DNA of 32,000 bases, taken from positions 720,001 through 752,000 of the forward strand of contig NZ_CP010904.1 of NCBI RefSeq assembly GCF_001017655.1. Reading direction: 5' to 3'. This DNA comes from Kiritimatiella glycovorans. Its GTDB lineage: Bacteria > Verrucomicrobiota > Kiritimatiellia > Kiritimatiellales > Kiritimatiellaceae. The position numbers and the translations under genes were made by a program. Under the pieces are notes generated by a model, which had not been told where the DNA came from, ran no database searches, and saw only the letters and a list, made by a program, of their open reading frames with translations. Each line of letters begins with the position of its first letter. Positions within the stretch are counted from its first letter, which is position 1. Shown one piece after another: positions 21,172-30,300 of this stretch.

Positions 21172-22137
21172 TCATCCCGAATCACGGATGACCAGTTTGC
21201 CGGGGAAAAGGATCTCCTCCGGATCGGCGGGCGTCATGAGCGATTCGAAAACGCGCCCGGCCATGGCGTCCACGTCCTGGCGGACGGTGGTCAGCGCAGG
21301 AATAAACTTTGCCGCGAAGGGGATGTCGTCGAACCCCGTGACCGCGACTTCACCCGGCACGTCGATCCCGCGCTCGTGCAGGGCCTTGAGCGCGCCCATG
21401 GCCATGCGATCCGTCGCGCAGACCAGCGCATCGGCCCTCGCTCCCGAGCCCGGCCACCGGCGCGCGGATTCGTATCCGGCCTCGAAGCCGCCGGACGATT
21501 GAGGCGCCGCGGCTGTGAATCCGAGTCCCGCGTCACGGGCGGCGTCGCGCAGCTTGCGTTCGCGCAGCCGGTGCGCGGGCAGTTTCTGAGAGAGAAATCG
21601 CAGTCGCCGCCGGTCGTGTGCGGCGAGATGATCGATCAGCTTTTCCGCCGCGTCCTCTTCGTCCGTAGTCAGCCGCACGCTGCGCTCCTCTGAAGGACCG
21701 TGCCCCACACGCACCACCGGCAGCTGCGTGAACGACTCCAGCCACGGTGCCCCGGCGTCGGATCCCACGATGATCAGCGCGTCGATCGCGTGCTTGTGCA
21801 GCGGCCGCAGATCCCGTTCGTCCGGAACCCGGTTGACAAATCCGGCCAGCACCAGCGAGTACTCATGCCTGTGGGCCTGCTCCTGGATCCGATGAATCAT
21901 CATCCCGAAAAAGGGGTCGTTGAAGTCGTAGACCGCCACGCCGACCGTCCGGGTCGCCTTGCCCTTCAGCGATAACGCCGCCGCGTTCGGCACATACCCC
22001 AGCCGCTCCGCCGTCTCCAGCACACGCTGCTGCGTCGCCGCCGCAATGCCGATCTCGTCCGCCGTGCCCGAAAGCACGCGCGAGACCAGCGCCACCGAGA
22101 CGCCCAGCCGCTCCGCAATGTTCCGCTGACTCACCAT
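21172..22137 (-). CDS. LacI-family transcriptional regulator
   Basis: Starting at the ATG at 22137 gives MVSQRNIAERLGVSVALVSRVLSG (HTH) followed by a periplasmic-binding-fold sugar-binding domain. It is divergent from the uronate operon. Confidence 0.85.
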   Translation of the reverse strand: MVSQRNIAERLGVSVALVSRVLSGTADEIGIAAATQQRVLETAERLGYVPNAAALSLKGKATRTVGVAVYDFNDPFFGMMIHRIQEQAHRHEYSLVLAGFVNRVPDERDLRPLHKHAIDALIIVGSDAGAPWLESFTQLPVVRVGHGPSEERSVRLTTDEEDAAEKLIDHLAAHDRRRLRFLSQKLPAHRLRERKLRDAARDAGLGFTAAAPQSSGGFEAGYESARRWPGSGARADALVCATDRMAMGALKALHERGIDVPGEVAVTGFDDIPFAAKFIPALTTVRQDVDAMAGRVFESLMTPADPEEILFPGKLVIRDSG

Positions 22138-22301
22138 AATAAGAGGGCAGTATGACGGGGAATCGGCCACGAAAACAAGCAGGACATGAAGCTGACCCCT
22201 CTTCATGCCCTTGCCGTATTTGTGATGAATCAGATCTTGCCGGTCCCGAAGAAACACTCTATATTCTCAAACCATTGAGTAAAGCTGAGGGAGCCTGATG
22301 T

Positions 22302-23117
22302 ATGAACGATTATTTTGATCTCGGCGGCCGGGTGGTCGCGGTCACGGGGGCGGCGGGCGTGCTGGCGGGCGGTACGGCGCGCTATCTCCAGCAGCGGGGG
22401 GCGACGGCGGTCTACCTCGATCTGGAGGGGGAGCGCCTGGACGCGGCGCTGGAACAGGCGAAGGGCATTTCCGATAAGTGCGCGGCGTTTCCGTGTGATG
22501 TGCTCGACCGCGACCGGCTGGCGCAGGTGCGCGACGAGGTAAAGCGCACATTCGGCCGCGTGGATGCCCTGATCAACGGCGCGGGCGGCAATATGGCCGG
22601 GGCGACGATCGGTCCGGAGCAGGAGGTGTTCGATCTGGAGGTCGAGGCCTACGACAGGGTGCTCGATCTGAACCTGAAGGGCACGGTTCTGCCGACGCTG
22701 GCGTTCGCGGAGGCGTTCCGGGAACAGCGCGCGGGGTGCGTGGTCAATTTTTCGTCCATGGCCGCCGGGCGGGCGCTGACCCGCGTGCTGGGGTACTCCA
22801 ACGCCAAGGCGGCGGTGGAGAACTTCACGCGCTGGATGGCGACCGAGCTGGCGCAAAAGTACGGCGACGGTCTGCGCGTCAATGCCGTCGCGCCGGGATT
22901 CTTTATCGGCGAACAGAACCGGAGGCTCCTTACGAACGAGGACGGATCCTACACGGAGCGCGGCCGGCAGGTGATCGATCAGACGCCGTTCGGCCGTTTC
23001 GGTGAGGCGCACGAGGTCTACGGTACGGTCCATTACCTGCTTTCCGACGCGGCGTCGTTCGTAACCGGCGCGGTGATCCCCATCGACGGCGGGTTTTCAG
23101 CCTACAGCGGAGTGTGA
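22302..23117 (+). CDS. SDR-family oxidoreductase, D-mannonate/fructuronate oxidoreductase-like (short-chain UxuB type)
   Basis: VTGAAGVLAG, NGAGGNMAGATIGPEQ, SSMAA...YSNAKAA, APGFFIGEQNRRLLTNEDGS.TERG, and a C-terminal IDGGFSAYSGV tail typical of the Bacteroidota/PVC UxuB-type SDRs. Confidence 0.75.
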   Translation: MNDYFDLGGRVVAVTGAAGVLAGGTARYLQQRGATAVYLDLEGERLDAALEQAKGISDKCAAFPCDVLDRDRLAQVRDEVKRTFGRVDALINGAGGNMAGATIGPEQEVFDLEVEAYDRVLDLNLKGTVLPTLAFAEAFREQRAGCVVNFSSMAAGRALTRVLGYSNAKAAVENFTRWMATELAQKYGDGLRVNAVAPGFFIGEQNRRLLTNEDGSYTERGRQVIDQTPFGRFGEAHEVYGTVHYLLSDAASFVTGAVIPIDGGFSAYSGV

Positions 23118-23120
23118 ATC

Positions 23121-24155
23121 ATGACGGATCATCAATGGGAACTTTTATGCCGGATCGTTGCGGGGGAGGCGGTCGAGACGCCTCCGGTCGGATTCATCAT
23201 CGACAGCCCGTGGCTGCCGGGCTGGCACGGGGTGAGCACCCTCTCGTACTACGCCTCCGACCGCGCCTGGCTGGAGGCCAACCTGAATGCGGTCGAGTCC
23301 TTCCCGGAGGTGATGTTCATCCCGGGGTTCTGGTCGGAGTTCGGGATGTGTACCGAACCCTCGGCGTTCGGTGCAAAATGCAGCTGGGAGACCGATGCGC
23401 TGCCGCACGCCCACCGCGTGATTACCGAGGCGGCCCGGGCGGGCGAGATCGCCAAGCCCGATGTGCGCCGGGACGGGCTGCTGCCTTTCGTGATCGAACG
23501 GCTCGCCGGCGCACAGCCGGCCATGCGCGAGGCCGGCCATGAAATCCGCTTCGCCGTATCCCGTGGCCCGCTCAATATCGCCTCGTTCCTGATGGGGACC
23601 ACCGAGTTTCTGCTCGCGCTCTACACCGAGCGCGAGGCGTGCGAGGCGCTGCTGAAGACCATTACCGATTTTGTCGTCGACTGGATCGGATATCAGAAGG
23701 AGCGGTTCGATACGATCGATGCCGTGCTCGTGCTCGACGACATCGTGGGGTTTGTGGGCGAGGAGGATTACCTTCAGTTCGCCCATCCTTACCTGGAGCG
23801 GATCTTCCAGTCGTTCCCGTTCAGTGTGAAGGCCTTTCACAATGATGCCAAAGGGCTGGTGTGCGCCCCGCATCTCTCCGGGGCCGGCATCAACCTGTTC
23901 AATTTCGCCTTTGAACACGGGTTGGATGAAATGCGCGCGTTGTGCGGGGAAGAGGTGACGTTGTGGGGTAACCTGCCGCCGCGCGATACCCTGGCCGCGC
24001 AGTCCCCGGACGAAGTGCGCGCCGCAGCGGCCGACATGGTGCGCGGCTGTACCGATCCCCGCCGCGTGCTGTTTTCGTGCGGCGGCGGCATGCCGCCCGA
24101 CGTCCGCAGCGAACAGCTGCGCGCGTTCGTGGAAGGGTGCAGACAGGAAGGGTAG
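23121..24155 (+). CDS. Uroporphyrinogen decarboxylase (URO-D/MtaA-like) family protein, function unknown
   Basis: The length, and motifs such as IDSPWLPGW, FWSEFGMCTEPSAFG, LDDIVGFV and FSCGGGMPP, fit the URO-D TIM-barrel family. It sits 3 nt after the SDR gene. Confidence 0.7.
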   Translation: MTDHQWELLCRIVAGEAVETPPVGFIIDSPWLPGWHGVSTLSYYASDRAWLEANLNAVESFPEVMFIPGFWSEFGMCTEPSAFGAKCSWETDALPHAHRVITEAARAGEIAKPDVRRDGLLPFVIERLAGAQPAMREAGHEIRFAVSRGPLNIASFLMGTTEFLLALYTEREACEALLKTITDFVVDWIGYQKERFDTIDAVLVLDDIVGFVGEEDYLQFAHPYLERIFQSFPFSVKAFHNDAKGLVCAPHLSGAGINLFNFAFEHGLDEMRALCGEEVTLWGNLPPRDTLAAQSPDEVRAAAADMVRGCTDPRRVLFSCGGGMPPDVRSEQLRAFVEGCRQEG

Positions 24156-24261: not shown

Positions 24262-25335
24262 ATGACCGAGAAGGCACAGAAGACATACGCGCTGGTCGTG
24301 CCGACCAGCATGGGGCTGCGACTGACCCCGGACGACGCGCAGCCGTTCCACAGCAGCGATCGGTTCCACATGCACGCGACCAGCGCGGAGAGCAATGTGG
24401 CCAGCGTGGTTTCCTATCTCGGGCTCCCGGTCAAGGTGCTGACCGCGTTCGTCAGCGGGAGCCCCGTCTCGCACTTTATACAAACCAACCTGCGCAGCCG
24501 GGGGATGGCGATCGAAGGCCCCGGGTTCGAGCAGGGCGGACCGTGGGGGCTGCGCCACCAGATCAACATGGCCGACCGCGGGTGGGGCTCGCGGGGACCG
24601 CGGGTGCACAACGACCGCGCCGGCGAGGTCGCGCGCGGATTGCGGCCGGAGGACTTCGACCTGAACCGGATTTTCGGTCAGGAGGGCGCGCGGATCGTCC
24701 ATCTCTCGGGCCTGATCGCGGCGCTCTCTCCGGAGACCGGCCGGCTGTGTCTGGAGATCGCCCGGGTGGCGCGGGAACACGGATCGCTGATCTCGTTTGA
24801 TCTGAATCACCGCGCGAGCTTCTGGAAGGGACGCGAGCGCGAACTCGCGGAGGTGTTTGCCGGAATCGCCGCGAACAGCGATATCCTGGTCGGCAACGAA
24901 GAGGACTTCCAGCTCTGTCTCGGGATCGAGGGTCCGGAGTCCGGCGGAAAGGGGCTGGAGGCGAAGATCGACGACTTCAAGGAGATGATCGGCCGCGTGC
25001 AGTCCGCGTATCCCGGCGCCTCGCGGTTCGCGACCACGCTGCGGGAAGTACACTCCGCCAACCGCCACCTGTGGGGCGCCCTGGCCGTACAGGACGGCGA
25101 GTGGGAGGTCATCCGCCCGCGTGAGATCGGAGTGCTGGACCGGATCGGCGGCGGCGACGGCTTTGTCGGCGGGCTGCTGTACGGTACACTCAAAGAGTGG
25201 GATATCCACCGCTGCGCGCAGTTCGGATGGGCCTGCGGCGCGCTGGCGGCGACGCTGCGAACCGACTACGCCCAGCCGGTCAGCGAGGAGCAGGTCTGGG
25301 GCATCTGGGAAGGCAATGCGCGGGTCAGGCGCTAG
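24262..25335 (+). CDS. kdgK: PfkB-family sugar kinase, 2-dehydro-3-deoxygluconokinase-like
   Basis: DRIGGGDGFVGGLLYG is the PfkB signature 2. The overall layout is like the long KdgK type. Substrate is inferred from context only. Confidence 0.7.
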   Translation: MTEKAQKTYALVVPTSMGLRLTPDDAQPFHSSDRFHMHATSAESNVASVVSYLGLPVKVLTAFVSGSPVSHFIQTNLRSRGMAIEGPGFEQGGPWGLRHQINMADRGWGSRGPRVHNDRAGEVARGLRPEDFDLNRIFGQEGARIVHLSGLIAALSPETGRLCLEIARVAREHGSLISFDLNHRASFWKGRERELAEVFAGIAANSDILVGNEEDFQLCLGIEGPESGGKGLEAKIDDFKEMIGRVQSAYPGASRFATTLREVHSANRHLWGALAVQDGEWEVIRPREIGVLDRIGGGDGFVGGLLYGTLKEWDIHRCAQFGWACGALAATLRTDYAQPVSEEQVWGIWEGNARVRR

Positions 25336-25362: not shown

Positions 25363-26811
25363 ATGAACGCGGATATCGGACTGATCGGTCTGGCGGTGAT
25401 GGGAGAGAACCTGGTGCTCAACATGGAGAGCAAAGGGTTCAGCGTGGCGGTCTACAATCGTACGACCGAGAAGGTCGACCGCTTTGTCGGCGGACGCGGC
25501 GCGGGCAAAAACATCACCGGCTGCCATTCGATCGAGGAACTGTGCGCCGCGCTGGAGCGCCCGCGCAAAGTGATGATGCTCGTCAAGGCGGGCGGGGCCG
25601 TCGACGCTCTCATCGAAAAGCTGATGCCGCACCTTGAAGAGGGCGACATCATCATCGACGGCGGCAACTCGCACTTTCCCGACACCATCCGCCGCACGGA
25701 AACCGTCGAGAGCCGCGGTCTGCTCTACATCGGTACCGGCGTCTCCGGCGGCGAGGAGGGCGCCCTGAAAGGGCCGTCCATCATGCCCGGCGGATCGCCG
25801 GCGGCGTGGGAACACGTCAGGCCGATCTTTCAGAAGATCGCCGCGCAGACCGCCGACGGCGAGCCGTGCTGCGACTGGGTCGGCGAAGGCGGCGCGGGGC
25901 ATTTCGTCAAGATGGTCCACAACGGGATCGAGTACGGCGACATGCAGATGATCTGCGAGACGTACCAGATGATGAAGGCGGGCCTCGGGATGTCGAACGA
26001 AGAGATGCACGAGGTCTTCGGCCAGTGGAACCAGGGCGAACTCGACAGCTATCTCATCGAGATCACCCGCGACATCCTCGGCTATAAGACCGAAGACGGC
26101 GAGGCCGTCATCGACTCGATCCTCGACACGGCCGGGCAGAAGGGGACCGGCAAGTGGACGGCGCAGGCGGCCCTCGACCTCGGCCAGCCGCTCACGCTGA
26201 TCGGCGAGGCCGTGTTCGCCCGCTGCCTGTCGGCGCTCAAGGACGAACGCGTGGCCGCGTCGAAGGAGCTGTCCGGACCGGACGGGAACTTCGAGGGCGA
26301 TCGCGAGGCGATGATCGAGGATCTGCGCCAGGCGCTGTACGCGTCGAAGATCGCCTCCTACGCCCAGGGCTACCAGCTGATGCGCGCTGCGGCGGCGGAG
26401 TACGGCTGGAATCTGAACTACGGCGGCATCGCGCTGATGTGGCGCGGGGGGTGCATCATCCGCTCCGTCTTCCTCGGAAAGATCAAGGAGGCCTTCGACC
26501 ACGACCCCGAGCTGGTGAACCTGCTGCTCGACCCGTTCTTCCAGTCGGCCGTGGACCAGGCCCAGGCGGGCTGGCGGCGGGTGGTGAGCCGGGCGGTCGA
26601 GCTGGGGATCCCGATGCCGGCCATCAGTTCCGCGCTCGCGTTCTACGACGGATACCGCAGTGCGCGGCTTCCGGCGAACCTGCTGCAGGCTCAGCGCGAT
26701 TACTTCGGGGCGCACACCTACGAACGGGTCGACCGGCCGCGCGGCGAGTTTTTCCACACCAACTGGACCGGCCGCGGCGGCGATACGGCGGCCTCCACCT
26801 ACAGCGTATAA
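25363..26811 (+). CDS. gnd: 6-phosphogluconate dehydrogenase, decarboxylating
   Basis: MNADIGLIGLAVMGENLVLNMESKGF...VSGGEEGAL.GPSIMPGG...HFVKMVHNGIEYGDMQ...LLQAQRDYFGAHTYER are textbook Gnd motifs. Confidence 0.9.
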   Translation: MNADIGLIGLAVMGENLVLNMESKGFSVAVYNRTTEKVDRFVGGRGAGKNITGCHSIEELCAALERPRKVMMLVKAGGAVDALIEKLMPHLEEGDIIIDGGNSHFPDTIRRTETVESRGLLYIGTGVSGGEEGALKGPSIMPGGSPAAWEHVRPIFQKIAAQTADGEPCCDWVGEGGAGHFVKMVHNGIEYGDMQMICETYQMMKAGLGMSNEEMHEVFGQWNQGELDSYLIEITRDILGYKTEDGEAVIDSILDTAGQKGTGKWTAQAALDLGQPLTLIGEAVFARCLSALKDERVAASKELSGPDGNFEGDREAMIEDLRQALYASKIASYAQGYQLMRAAAAEYGWNLNYGGIALMWRGGCIIRSVFLGKIKEAFDHDPELVNLLLDPFFQSAVDQAQAGWRRVVSRAVELGIPMPAISSALAFYDGYRSARLPANLLQAQRDYFGAHTYERVDRPRGEFFHTNWTGRGGDTAASTYSV

Positions 26812-26822
26812 GGACATCGGGT

Positions 26823-28115
26823 ATGCCGTGGTTTATTCGTAAAGATGAGTCGATCGCCCGCACGGAGATCGAGCAGTTGTGTCAGCGCACGCTCGACGAG
26901 GCGCGCGACCGTCTGGGGTGTTCGTTCAGACGGGTGCTGCTGCTGCCGCCGGATATCACCCGCGCCCACTGCGGCGCGGGCTGGATCGCTGAAACCTTCG
27001 ACCGGCTGCTGCCGGATAGCTGTGAGGTTCACATGATTCCCACCCTGGGACAGCATGTGCCGCATACGAAGGCCGACAACCGGTGGATGTTCGGGGATTT
27101 CCCGGAGGAGCGGATTCATGCCCACGACTGGCGCAACGGGGTCACCCGGATGGGGACCATCCCCGCCGCGCGCGTGGCGGAGAGCACCGACGGAAAGGCC
27201 GACTGGGAGATCCCGGTCGATCTCAACACCATGACGGTCGAGGGCGGGTGGGACCTGATCATCAACATCGGCCACGTCGTCCCGCATGAAGTGCTCGGGT
27301 TTGCGAACCACAACAAAAACTATTTCATCGGGCTCGGCGGCAAGGAAACCATTTGTGCGTCTCACCTCGCCGCGGGCGTGTACGGAATCGAGAACAACCT
27401 CGGCCGGCTCATCACGCCGCTGCGGGCCTGCTACAACTGGGCGGAAGAACAGTTTCTGGGGCATTGGCCGCACGTCTACATGATGGTGACCATGAAGCGT
27501 GACGAACAGAATCGGCTGGTGCACAGCGGCGTCTATGTCGGGGACGACGTCGACACCTACCTGGCGGCGGCCGAAACCAGCCTCGAGCAGAACATCACCG
27601 TTTTTGAACGACCGGTGAAAAAGATCGTGGCGGTCATGCAGGCCGATGAATTCCGCGCCACCTGGGTGGCGAATAAAGCCGTATACCGTACCCGCATGGC
27701 GATGGCCGACGGAGGGGAGCTGCTGATTATCGCGCCCGGGGTCGAGCGCTTCGGCGAGCAGAAGGAGGTCGACGCCCTCATTCGCACCTACGGCTACTGC
27801 GGGTCGCCTCAGGTGCTGGATCTCTACAAAAAGAAACGGGACCTCCAGGACCTGGCTCACGGCGCGGCGCACCTGATGCACGGGTCGTCCGAAGGACGGT
27901 TTACCATCCGCTACGCCCCGGGCGGCCTGAGTCGCGAAGAGGTCGAAGGCGTTCATTACGAATACGCCGACCCCCGGGAGGCCCTGGCGCGCTACAATCC
28001 GGAGACCATGCAGGAGGGCTGGAACACGATGCCGGACGGCGAAGAGGTCTTTTTCATCAGCACGCCCTCCGCGGGGTTGTGGTCCGTGAAGGAGAAAGTT
28101 GGAGGCGGCCGATGA
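26823..28115 (+). CDS. LarA-like (DUF2088) nickel-pincer-cofactor-type 2-hydroxyacid racemase/epimerase homolog
   Basis: The ATG at 26823 lies 9 nt after the gnd stop. PTLGQHVPHT and NIGHVVPHEVLGFANHNKNYFIGLGGKETICASH align by eye with the LarA His/His/Lys/His catalytic and cofactor residues. The ORF-track start at 26154 is an out-of-frame overlap with gnd. Confidence 0.7.
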   Translation: MPWFIRKDESIARTEIEQLCQRTLDEARDRLGCSFRRVLLLPPDITRAHCGAGWIAETFDRLLPDSCEVHMIPTLGQHVPHTKADNRWMFGDFPEERIHAHDWRNGVTRMGTIPAARVAESTDGKADWEIPVDLNTMTVEGGWDLIINIGHVVPHEVLGFANHNKNYFIGLGGKETICASHLAAGVYGIENNLGRLITPLRACYNWAEEQFLGHWPHVYMMVTMKRDEQNRLVHSGVYVGDDVDTYLAAAETSLEQNITVFERPVKKIVAVMQADEFRATWVANKAVYRTRMAMADGGELLIIAPGVERFGEQKEVDALIRTYGYCGSPQVLDLYKKKRDLQDLAHGAAHLMHGSSEGRFTIRYAPGGLSREEVEGVHYEYADPREALARYNPETMQEGWNTMPDGEEVFFISTPSAGLWSVKEKVGGGR

Positions 28116-29563
28116 AGGCGTTTATGGACGAAGATTTTCTCCTGCAGACCCCGAGCGCCCGGAGGCTCTACCACGACCACGCCGCGCGGATGCCGATCAT
28201 CGATTACCACTGTCATCTGCCGCCGGAGGACATCGCCGCGGACCGCGCGTACGACAACCTCGGCGAGGCCTGGCTGGCGGGCGATCACTACAAGTGGCGC
28301 GCGATGCGCTCCAACGGCATACCCGAAGACCGAATTACAGGCGGGGCGGACTGGAGGGAGAAATTCGACGCCTGGGCGGCGACGGTGCCGCATACGCTTC
28401 GGAATCCCCTCTACCACTGGACGCACCTGGAGCTGCAGCGCTATTTCGGGATCTCCGATCTGCTCAACCCCGACACGGCGGGGTCCATCTATGAACGCGC
28501 CTCGGAGATGCTGCGGACCCCCGAGTTCTCCGCGCGCAACCTGATGCGGCGGATGAACGTGAAGGCGGTCTGCACCACCGACGATCCCGTCGATTCGCTG
28601 CAGCATCACGCGCGGCTCTGCCGCGAGGGGTTCGAGATCGAAGTCCGCCCCGCCTTCCGGCCCGACCGGGCCATGAAGCTCGAAGATCCCGCCGCCTGGC
28701 GTGAATATCTCGAGACCCTGGGCTCCGCCGCGAAGGTGGAGATCCGTGATTTCGCCTCGCTGCTCGAGGCCGTGGATGAGCGCCATGCCTTTTTTCATTC
28801 CATGGGCTGCCGACTTTCGGATCACGGCGTGGAATACGTCCCGGACGCCGAGGCGTGCTCCGCGGAACTGGAGGCGATTTTCGCCAAGGCCCTGCAGGGG
28901 GAGGTGGTCTCGCGCGCCGAACGCGACGCCTTTCAGGCGGCCTTTCTGTACGCCGTCGCCCGCATGAACCATGTCCGTGGATGGGCGCAGCAGTTTCATG
29001 TCGGAGTCGCGCGGAGCAACAACTCCCGGCGGCTCCGCGAACTGGGACCCGATACCGGCTTCGATTCGATCGGCGATTTCCGTCAGGGCCCCGGCCTCGT
29101 ACGACTGCTCGACCGGCTCGACGCCTCGCACCATCTCGCGCGCACGGTGCTCTACAACATCAACCCGGCGGACCACGCCCTGATGGCGACGGTCATCGGC
29201 AGCTTCCAGGACGCCTCCCGCCCCGGCAAGATGCAGTGGGGTTCGGCCTGGTGGTTCCTCGACCACAAACAGGGTATGGAAGAGCATCTCAACACCCTCT
29301 CCGCCGACGGCCTGTTGAGCCGCTTTGTGGGCATGCTCACCGACTCGCGCAGTTTTCTGTCCTACCCGCGCCACGAGTACTTCCGGCGCATCCTCTGCAA
29401 CCTCGTGGGGAACGAGGTGGAACACGGCGAGATTCCCGCCGATTTCGATTTGCTGGGCGGGATGATCGAGGATGTCTGTTTCCATAACGCGCGGGATTAC
29501 TTCTTCGGGGGAGAAAGAGGGAAGGAAGTTGAGGGAGAGGATGGGGGAAAGATAAAGATATGA
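28112..29563 (+). CDS. uxaC: Glucuronate isomerase
   Basis: MKAFMDEDFLLQTPSARRLYHDHAARMPIIDYHCHLPPEDIA...GDHYKWRAMRSNG is near-canonical UxaC. ATGA overlap with the upstream stop. The last ~18 codons (GGERGKEVEGEDGGKIKI) look repeat-derived. Confidence 0.9.
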   Translation: MKAFMDEDFLLQTPSARRLYHDHAARMPIIDYHCHLPPEDIAADRAYDNLGEAWLAGDHYKWRAMRSNGIPEDRITGGADWREKFDAWAATVPHTLRNPLYHWTHLELQRYFGISDLLNPDTAGSIYERASEMLRTPEFSARNLMRRMNVKAVCTTDDPVDSLQHHARLCREGFEIEVRPAFRPDRAMKLEDPAAWREYLETLGSAAKVEIRDFASLLEAVDERHAFFHSMGCRLSDHGVEYVPDAEACSAELEAIFAKALQGEVVSRAERDAFQAAFLYAVARMNHVRGWAQQFHVGVARSNNSRRLRELGPDTGFDSIGDFRQGPGLVRLLDRLDASHHLARTVLYNINPADHALMATVIGSFQDASRPGKMQWGSAWWFLDHKQGMEEHLNTLSADGLLSRFVGMLTDSRSFLSYPRHEYFRRILCNLVGNEVEHGEIPADFDLLGGMIEDVCFHNARDYFFGGERGKEVEGEDGGKIKI

Positions 29564-29632: not shown

Positions 29633-29872
29633 ATGAGAACGACCCTTCAGATTCAGGATTCGCTGCTTGAGCGGGTGAGGCGGGAGGCCGCGAACCGGCA
29701 CTGTTCGCTTGGCACGGTGGTTAATGAAGCCCTTGCCCGGGCATACTCGGACCGCAGTCGAACTCCCGATCGTGGTAAAACGAAGCTTCCGGTGTACAAA
29801 GGACGCGGACTCCAGCCGGGTGTTGATCTGGATTCTTCGACCGCCCTTGAGGATCTGATGGAGGGGCGATGA
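29633..29872 (+). CDS. Type II antitoxin, VapB-like
   Basis: 79 aa. MRTTLQIQDSLLERVRREAANRHCSLGTVVNEAL has an RHH/DUF2191-like N-terminus. ATGA overlap with the PIN toxin gene. Confidence 0.7.
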   Translation: MRTTLQIQDSLLERVRREAANRHCSLGTVVNEALARAYSDRSRTPDRGKTKLPVYKGRGLQPGVDLDSSTALEDLMEGR

Positions 29873-30300
29873 TTCTTTTTGACGTTAACGTGCTGGTCTA
29901 TGCCTATCGGGAGGATGCGGACCGGCACAAAGAGTACCGTCGCTGGCTGAAGTCGACGCTGGATGGCCAGGAGGCGTGTGCGGTTTCGGAACTGGTGCTG
30001 AGCGGGTTCCTGAGGGTGTGCACGCATCCGAAGGTCTTTGATCCTCCCGCGCCGCTTGACGGAGCGCTGGATTTTACAGGCGAGCTGCGCAGCCACGCCA
30101 ATGTGATGGTGTTGAGCCCCGGTCACAGACACTGGGAAATCTTCCAGCGGCTATGTCGGGACAGTGGCGCAAAGGGCAATCTGATCAGCGATGCATACCA
30201 CGCGGCCCTTGCCGTCGAGTACGGATGCGAATGGATCACAACCGACCGCGATTTCGCCCGGTTCCAGGGGCTGAAATGGCGTCATCCGCTTGACGGATGA
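29869..30300 (+). CDS. vapC: Type II toxin, PIN-domain ribonuclease VapC
   Basis: MILFDVNVLVYA (first acidic residue), SELVLSGFLR, LISDAYHAALAVEYGCEWITTDRDFARF (PIN acidic residues). Confidence 0.85.
   Translation: MILFDVNVLVYAYREDADRHKEYRRWLKSTLDGQEACAVSELVLSGFLRVCTHPKVFDPPAPLDGALDFTGELRSHANVMVLSPGHRHWEIFQRLCRDSGAKGNLISDAYHAALAVEYGCEWITTDRDFARFQGLKWRHPLDG

Follow-up and report, generated by a model that had tools for sequence, protein, structure and literature searches.

What does a homologue of the lactate racemase LarA do in an operon for sugar-acid catabolism? The question is raised by a gene of Kiritimatiella glycovorans, here termed larAH18, carried by a stretch of 32,000 nucleotides (the window) that corresponds to positions 720,001–752,000 of the single 2.95-Mb contig (NZ_CP010904.1). 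The gene occupies positions 26823..28115 of the window on the forward strand and encodes a protein of 430 residues. An initial annotation had proposed an active enzyme dependent on the nickel-pincer nucleotide (NPN) and working on a sugar acid rather than on lactate. From the comparisons presented below, the enzyme most likely inverts one stereocentre of a six-carbon sugar acid, letting glucuronate enter the pentose-phosphate pathway. That it is an NPN-dependent sugar-acid 2-epimerase is held with high confidence. The best explanation overall, considered probable, is a functional 2-epimerase of LarA-homologue group 18 interconverting D-mannonate and D-gluconate in a glucuronate shunt; that the substrate is specifically this pair is somewhat favoured.

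The reading frame extends from an ATG at 26823 to a TGA at 28113–28115. A longer frame starting with a GTG at 26154 (653 residues) was rejected, as it overlaps gnd out of frame and as the homologues begin with MPWF, where P2, W3 and F4 are invariant. A likely ribosome-binding site, AAGGA (26810..26814, forward strand), read from the sequence, overlaps the stop codon of gnd and lies 8 nucleotides before the ATG. The gnd TAA is at 26809–26811, leaving a gap of 11 nucleotides (26812–26822) and not of 9 as first counted. The ATGA at 28112–28115, in which the stop of larAH18 overlaps the start of uxaC, had been read correctly. Together with a GGAGG at 28101–28105, 6 nucleotides upstream of the uxaC ATG, this overlap forms a signal (28101..28115, forward strand) that would couple the translation of larAH18 to that of uxaC.

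The larAH18 protein matches the NCBIfam model NF052594, 'nickel-dependent putative hexonate epimerase', with 579 bits (cut-off 500, E = 4e-174) over positions 4–410 of the 411 of the model. The sole Pfam domain recognised is Lar_N (PF09861, 34.5 bits for a cut-off of 23.3). By these matches, larAH18 is classified as an intact member of an already catalogued family, NF052594 (NPN_18_hexonate), which is group 18 of the LarA homologues, also 'G2E3' or 'putative hexonate epimerase' (Desguin et al. 2020, Sci Rep 10:18123, PMC7583248). The sugar-acid reading of group 18 has already been published as a hypothesis (PMC7583248) and is built into the curated NCBIfam model. The D-gluconate 2-epimerases named GntE belong to LarA-homologue groups 19 and 20 and to LarAH15 of Phytophthora. 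A wider 'GntE branch' of LarA homologues has been spoken of as well (PMC11770544). Group 18 is very widespread, and more than 7,700 relatives at E ≤ 1e-5 were found among 8,000 candidates scored.

Among solved structures, 4NAR is closest in sequence (E = 6e-29). It represents GntE2 of Thermotoga maritima (TM0442, LarAH20), for which NPN-dependent D-mannonate/D-gluconate 2-epimerase activity has been demonstrated (PMC7583248). The title under which 4NAR was deposited, 'putative uronate isomerase', is an obsolete structural-genomics label, and 'uronate isomerase' was discarded as an identity for larAH18; the true UxaC is encoded next to it. An AlphaFold2 model of the larAH18 protein was obtained with a mean predicted local distance difference test score (pLDDT) of 87 and a predicted template-modelling score (pTM) of 0.86. 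Submitted to Foldseek, it also matched 4NAR best (TM 0.80, E = 3e-27), followed by another 18 chains of the LarA family (E ≤ 2e-12), the next-best other chain reaching only E = 0.04. The protein is predicted from this model to have the two-domain fold of LarA. Only segments 46–48 and 161–165 are poorly defined. They are the loops that contain Arg47 and Lys165, and the model is free of cofactor.

The catalytic residues had been picked by eye from two peptides, PTLGQHVPHT (residues 73–82) and GHVVPHEVLGFANHNKNYFIGLGGKETICASH (residues 150–181), as a His/His/Lys/His set. These equivalences proved right by profile (HMMER), MAFFT and structure-based alignments. In a HMMER fragment alignment with the LarA apoprotein (2YJG), H155, K165 and H181 fall on H174, K184 and H200. 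A profile from 24 close homologues was too narrow and failed to reach LarA in a search of the PDB. A wider profile of 44 sequences, built from diverse relatives out of a 50%-identity library, matched 4NAR (E = 9e-69), 2YJG (3e-13), Mar2 (6D6Z, 2e-10) and Lactiplantibacillus plantarum LarA (5HUQ/6C1W, 9e-8). It kept the same register for the three residues and placed H78 on H108. MAFFT L-INS-i alignment with the L. plantarum LarA sequence printed in the supplement of Desguin 2020 gave the same four equivalences.

The codons concerned, all on the forward strand, are those of His78 (27054..27056) and His155 (27285..27287), aligned with the catalytic His108 and His174 of L. plantarum LarA, of Lys165 (27315..27317), aligned with the NPN-tethering Lys184, and of His181 (27363..27365), aligned with the nickel ligand His200. 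The spacing of 16 residues from K165 to H181 is that from K184 to H200 in LarA. All four residues are invariant in the 24 close homologues and conserved at 90% or more in the 44 diverse ones. The same degree of conservation in the diverse set applies to each of D44, R47 and K285, which correspond to the cofactor- and carboxylate-binding D72, R75 and K298 of LarA. L. plantarum LarA (5HUQ) and the larAH18 protein have in common the two-domain fold, the tethering lysine, the nickel-ligand histidine, the two catalytic histidines and the Asp/Arg/Lys set, with 12–13% identity in structural alignment. GntE2, the closest solved structure both by sequence and by fold, agrees with the larAH18 protein in its catalytic and cofactor residues.

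The pocket differs. By MAFFT alignment, F175, F176 and Q295, which line the lactate pocket of LarA, are replaced by E156, V157 and V282 in the larAH18 protein, and Y294 and V297 by W281 and N284. The published signature of group 18 reads D R H H E V K H. W L N K (PMC7583248). The larAH18 protein has it at LarA positions 72, 75, 108, 174, 175, 176, 184, 200, 294, 297 and 298 (D R H H E V K H W N K), where the group-specific E175, V176, W294 and N297 are present as E156, V157, W281 and N284. The only departure is at LarA position 295, which is Val in the larAH18 protein and Leu in published acidobacterial members.

A racemase of lactate, malate or another short 2-hydroxy acid, merely placed in a sugar-acid operon, would have the same LarA fold and catalytic residues. 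Such an activity is hardly credible in view of the Glu/Val/Val replacement of the lactate pocket. The lactate-racemase equivalog model NF033504 gives 20.8 bits, far under its cut-off of 460, and two malate-racemase models give 39.5 and 27 bits for cut-offs of 500 and 462. A sugar-acid context of the gene is also conserved across phyla, as described below. The identities of lactate or malate racemase were rejected on the model scores and pocket residues. The failure with NF033504 and the success with NF052594, the changed pocket and an operon context that recurs in other genomes all support the proposal that the enzyme would act on a sugar acid and not on lactate.

An NPN-dependent enzyme requires a source of cofactor. 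The initial annotation had seen no cofactor-biosynthesis genes in the window, which is correct, and had regarded their absence from the genome as grounds for refutation. They were found scattered around the genome, outside 720–752 kb, each encoding a full-length protein above cut-off: LarB at 392.7 kb (274 bits, cut-off 175), LarC at 2162.8 kb (207 bits, cut-off 90) and LarE at 51.7 kb (C1:51702-52622; 260 bits, cut-off 150). LarE has a CxxC motif (GRCYYCKR) and a third cysteine (PCL). It looks like the [4Fe-4S]-dependent, non-sacrificial type of T. maritima (PMC9283937), judging from these motifs. larAH18 is the sole Lar_N match, hence the only LarA homologue, of the genome.

Whether the cofactor genes accompany group 18 more generally was examined in a phylum sample of 121 genomes, 22 of which have an NF052594 match above cut-off. 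No enrichment of LarB was found over this sample, as it occurs in 13 of the 22 group-18-bearing genomes and in 78 of the 121 overall. A frequency of LarB independent of group 18 is consistent with the use of NPN by further enzymes, for instance those of the AKR-type family (PMC13524815). Neither LarB nor LarC was above cut-off in 9 of the 22 (G019, G037, G043, G061, G091, G073, G079, G109 and G065). All nine are metagenome-assembled genomes (MAGs; 94–98% complete), and all carry genes of a second group-18 lineage, termed 18b-like, that is distinguished below from the 18a subclade of larAH18 (loci L123–L130 and L116). In 8 of the 9, the group-18 gene is in a gnd-linked operon; the short contig of G037 showed no gnd, and the flanks in G065 were not covered. 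Gaps in the MAGs, scavenging of the cofactor or use of the protein without NPN could account for these cases, which have no bearing on the genome of K. glycovorans.

The nine genomes, and the presence of LarB with or without group 18, where it may serve AKR-type NPN enzymes, are what would speak for a larAH18 protein that is not an active NPN enzyme, being a cofactor-free protein, a pseudoenzyme or an enzyme with another cofactor. This is very unlikely. The nine orphan cases all concern the 18b-like subclade in MAGs, whereas the complete genome of K. glycovorans has larB, larC and larE, with larAH18 as the only LarA homologue. In the 18a subclade, larE or larB is next door in 25 of 80 loci, and all the cofactor-binding and catalytic residues are invariant in close homologues. 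We infer that the larAH18 protein is loaded with NPN and active.

The mechanism can be proposed from that of LarA, for which hydride transfer with two histidines is established (PMC7583248 and references therein). NPN, made by the LarB, LarC and LarE encoded elsewhere in the genome, would be tethered to Lys165, with its nickel ligated by His181, by homology with LarA. Arg47 and Lys285 would hold the carboxylate of the substrate. A hydride would pass from C2 of the substrate to NPN while His78 or His155 takes the proton of the hydroxyl. The hydride would then return to the opposite face of the 2-keto intermediate and the other histidine would give a proton, so that C2 is inverted. The physiological reaction would be D-mannonate <-> D-gluconate.

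The operon suggests where this reaction would fit. Its genes, all on the forward strand, encode in order a short-chain dehydrogenase/reductase (SDR), a URO-D-family protein, a PfkB-family kinase, Gnd, the larAH18 protein and UxaC, with gaps of 3, 106, 27 and 11 nucleotides and the final overlap of 4. The SDR (22302..23117) is annotated as a D-mannonate oxidoreductase, or fructuronate reductase; it passes the curated model of that enzyme (NF006132, 337 bits, cut-off 281) and fails those of gluconate 5-dehydrogenase. The URO-D-family protein (23121..24155; Pfam URO-D, 115 bits) has no curated NCBIfam match. The kinase (24262..25335; Pfam PfkB) is a diverged paralogue of KdgK and a candidate hexonate (gluconate) kinase. 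The 6-phosphogluconate dehydrogenase Gnd (25363..26811; TIGR00873, 778 bits) is encoded by the only copy in the genome. The glucuronate isomerase UxaC (28112..29563; NF002794, 612 bits, cut-off 387) aligns from residue 1 of its model. A divergent gene on the reverse strand (21172..22257) encodes a LacI-family regulator with several LacI-family NCBIfam matches, all below cut-offs.

In the most economical reading of the pathway, a shunt of the Thermotoga type, UxaC would convert glucuronate to fructuronate, the SDR would reduce it to mannonate and the larAH18 enzyme would epimerise mannonate to gluconate. The PfkB kinase would then yield 6-phosphogluconate, and Gnd ribulose-5-phosphate. This shunt would run parallel to the canonical UxuA-KdgK-Eda route, which is also encoded in the genome. 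The pathway logic of uxaC, reductase, epimerase, kinase and gnd is common with that proposed for GntE2 (PMC7583248, citing Rodionova 2012). A difference lies in the kinase, as the Thermotoga partner is an FGGY gluconokinase and that of the larAH18 operon is of the PfkB type.

The kinase was compared with its paralogue in the genome. A second PfkB kinase (C1:1963911-1964768, reverse strand) adjoins eda and is 29% identical to the operon kinase. The eda-adjacent kinase matches T. maritima KdgK (2AFB) with 253 bits and NF041633 with 441, against 122 and 161 for the operon kinase. By these scores, the eda-adjacent kinase can be taken as the clear KdgK of the genome. Likewise, uxuA lies elsewhere, preceded by an SDR paralogue 57% identical to that of the operon. 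As the kdgK-eda and SDR-uxuA modules are placed elsewhere, the operon kinase would be a spare paralogue. No canonical gluconokinase of either type was found above cut-off in the genome of K. glycovorans, and the operon kinase is a candidate for a new type of gluconate or hexonate kinase. The uxuA gene and its SDR neighbour (C1:2330355-2332524) encode proteins rich in Lys, Asn and Ile, unlike the rest of the high-GC genome. This composition, atypical for such a genome, suggests that the canonical mannonate dehydratase module was recently acquired.

The gene context was then surveyed at 80 loci encoding proteins 65–86% identical to the larAH18 protein; the flanking open reading frames were clustered and the cluster representatives annotated. 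The loci span Kiritimatiellia, Lentisphaerota, Verrucomicrobiota, Planctomycetota, Acidobacteriota, Actinomycetota and others. The recurrent neighbours are larB (25 of 80 loci), larE (20–25), SDR (17), uxaC (11), a major facilitator superfamily transporter (10), an orthologous PfkB kinase (9–10), gnd (8), uxaE (7), a mannitol-dehydrogenase-type reductase (6) and an FGGY kinase (5). The kinase orthologues are 60–77% identical to that of the operon, even in Actinomycetota, and adjoin larAH18 and gnd both in that phylum and in Kiritimatiellia. Seven of the eight gnd-bearing loci also have a kinase. The partner is a PfkB kinase in some loci and an FGGY kinase in others, which would fit a hexonate kinase that has undergone non-orthologous displacement better than a kinase of 2-keto-3-deoxygluconate (KDG). 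The SDR, Gnd, ribokinase-family kinase and UxaC found around larAH18 are also the published neighbours of group 18, at frequencies of 36% for SDR, 32% for 6-phosphogluconate dehydrogenase, 16% for the kinase and 12% for glucuronate isomerase (PMC7583248).

The coupling of larAH18 to uxaC could point instead to a C5 epimerase of free hexuronates, which would for example interconvert L-iduronate and D-glucuronate and feed UxaC with uronates from sulfated glycans. By chemical reasoning, the carboxylate of a uronate has C5 as its alpha-carbon, and a sulfatase gene is present in the equivalent operon of one MAG (locus L018). However, closure of the pyranose ring engages the C5 hydroxyl, the family has no reported activity of this type (PMC11770544), and conservation is strongest for the partnership with gnd and a kinase, not for that with uxaC. 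A role of this kind is regarded as very improbable.

Within group 18 as defined by NF052594, at least two subclades can be distinguished, with about 44% identity between them (L018:6700-9287; also L119, L120, L121 and L138). The subclade of larAH18, 18a, is 65–86% identical across Planctomycetes–Verrucomicrobia–Chlamydiae (PVC) bacteria, Acidobacteriota and Actinomycetota, and its identity to the remaining group-18 lineages is only 43–45%. It evolves slowly and, in a maximum-likelihood tree, forms a tight clade (support 98/98) inside the radiation of group 18, to which GntE2 is external. Among the 22 group-18 genomes of the phylum sample, 18a occurs only in K. glycovorans and the relative G011. 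The other 20 carry 18b-like lineages, 43–45% identical to the larAH18 protein. Some operons of the sample have the order PfkB-Gnd-LarAH-UxaC, as in K. glycovorans. Sister genomes from the taxonomic order of K. glycovorans hold 18b between gnd and uxaC or uxaE: PfkB (75–77% identical), Gnd (83–84%), 18b, UxaE in some cases, and UxaC (65–66%). Locus L018 has both subclades in tandem, in the order PfkB, Gnd, 18b, 18a, URO-D-like, sulfatase and UxaC.

Homologues of the URO-D-family protein are encoded in the same operon in L018 (L018:9291-10328) and in G011. The protein is present in all three Kiritimatiellales-type 18a operons (that of the window, L018, and L138 around 1730), is absent from the operons with 18b alone, and occurs in only 1 of the 80 loci elsewhere. 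The tandem arrangement with 18b in one MAG, this constant partner in three operons and the sulfatase in one underlie another possibility, thought improbable. In it, 18a would differ in function from its gnd-linked paralogue 18b and catalyse a new reaction with NPN on a different sugar acid, which could for example be phosphorylated, a 5-keto acid or derived from a uronate. The diverged PfkB kinase would then be a new type of hexonate kinase.

An alternative to mannonate/gluconate epimerisation keeps the chemistry and the cofactor and changes the substrate to another form of the C6 acid of manno/gluco configuration. The reaction could be D-fructuronate <-> 5-keto-D-gluconate, with epimerisation before the SDR, or 6-phospho-D-mannonate <-> 6-phosphogluconate, with the kinase first and the product going straight to Gnd, or it could concern another hexonate pair such as L-gulonate/L-idonate. 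It would agree with the position of gnd, which also counts in favour of the main reading: in 15 of 20 loci of the phylum sample gnd lies near the group-18 gene, mostly as its immediate neighbour. It would also agree with the pocket residues by which group 18 departs from groups 19 and 20, and with the high Km of GntE1 and GntE2 for free mannonate (120 and 17 mM); the authors of that work suspected another native substrate of GntE1. However, no LarA homologue acting on a phosphorylated acid is known (PMC7583248, PMC11770544), and the SDR passes the mannonate oxidoreductase model and not the gluconate 5-dehydrogenase ones. Another C6 acid is viewed as a realistic, if minority, possibility.

The two subclades bear on this choice in both directions. 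In sister genomes 18a and 18b share the same operon slot, which fits one role and argues for a shared place in the pathway, whereas the tandem paralogues of L018 suggest two specificities. Confidence in the mannonate/gluconate pair was mainly for that reason kept only slightly above even.

Several further observations weigh against the best explanation, besides a possible difference in substrate between the tandem paralogues. The larAH18 protein has only about 23% identity to the characterised GntE enzymes, which lie outside the group-18 radiation. Several pocket positions of group 18 are unlike those of groups 19 and 20, GntE2 having S176, A220, T295 and G297 among other differences. No assay of any group-18 enzyme was found in the literature searched; a 2024 follow-up study characterised further GntEs, group 18 not among them. 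At 44 of the 80 loci, recurrent and informative neighbours are lacking. The operon of the relative G011 also contains uxuA, and on that account phosphorylation of KDG is still conceivable for the PfkB kinase. Absence of zwf would have meant that gnd must serve the larAH18 pathway, and this test failed as a discriminator, zwf being present. With zwf present and gnd in single copy, gnd has a part in the ordinary oxidative branch as well, and where it lies does not by itself prove a dedicated shunt.

The region downstream of the operon holds a toxin gene. A VapC PIN-domain toxin (29633–30300; TIGR00028, 135 bits) is encoded directly 3' of uxaC, with a short open reading frame upstream that is presumably vapB.

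No new kind of biology is opened by larAH18. The gene gains a correct functional name, where such genes are usually annotated 'lactate racemase domain protein' or DUF2088. K. glycovorans offers a convenient test case for group 18, since it is cultured and fully sequenced, its operon is clean and larAH18 is its sole LarA homologue. The proposed epimerase would explain how an anaerobic glycan degrader can send glucuronate carbon to pentose phosphates, besides pyruvate and glyceraldehyde-3-phosphate.

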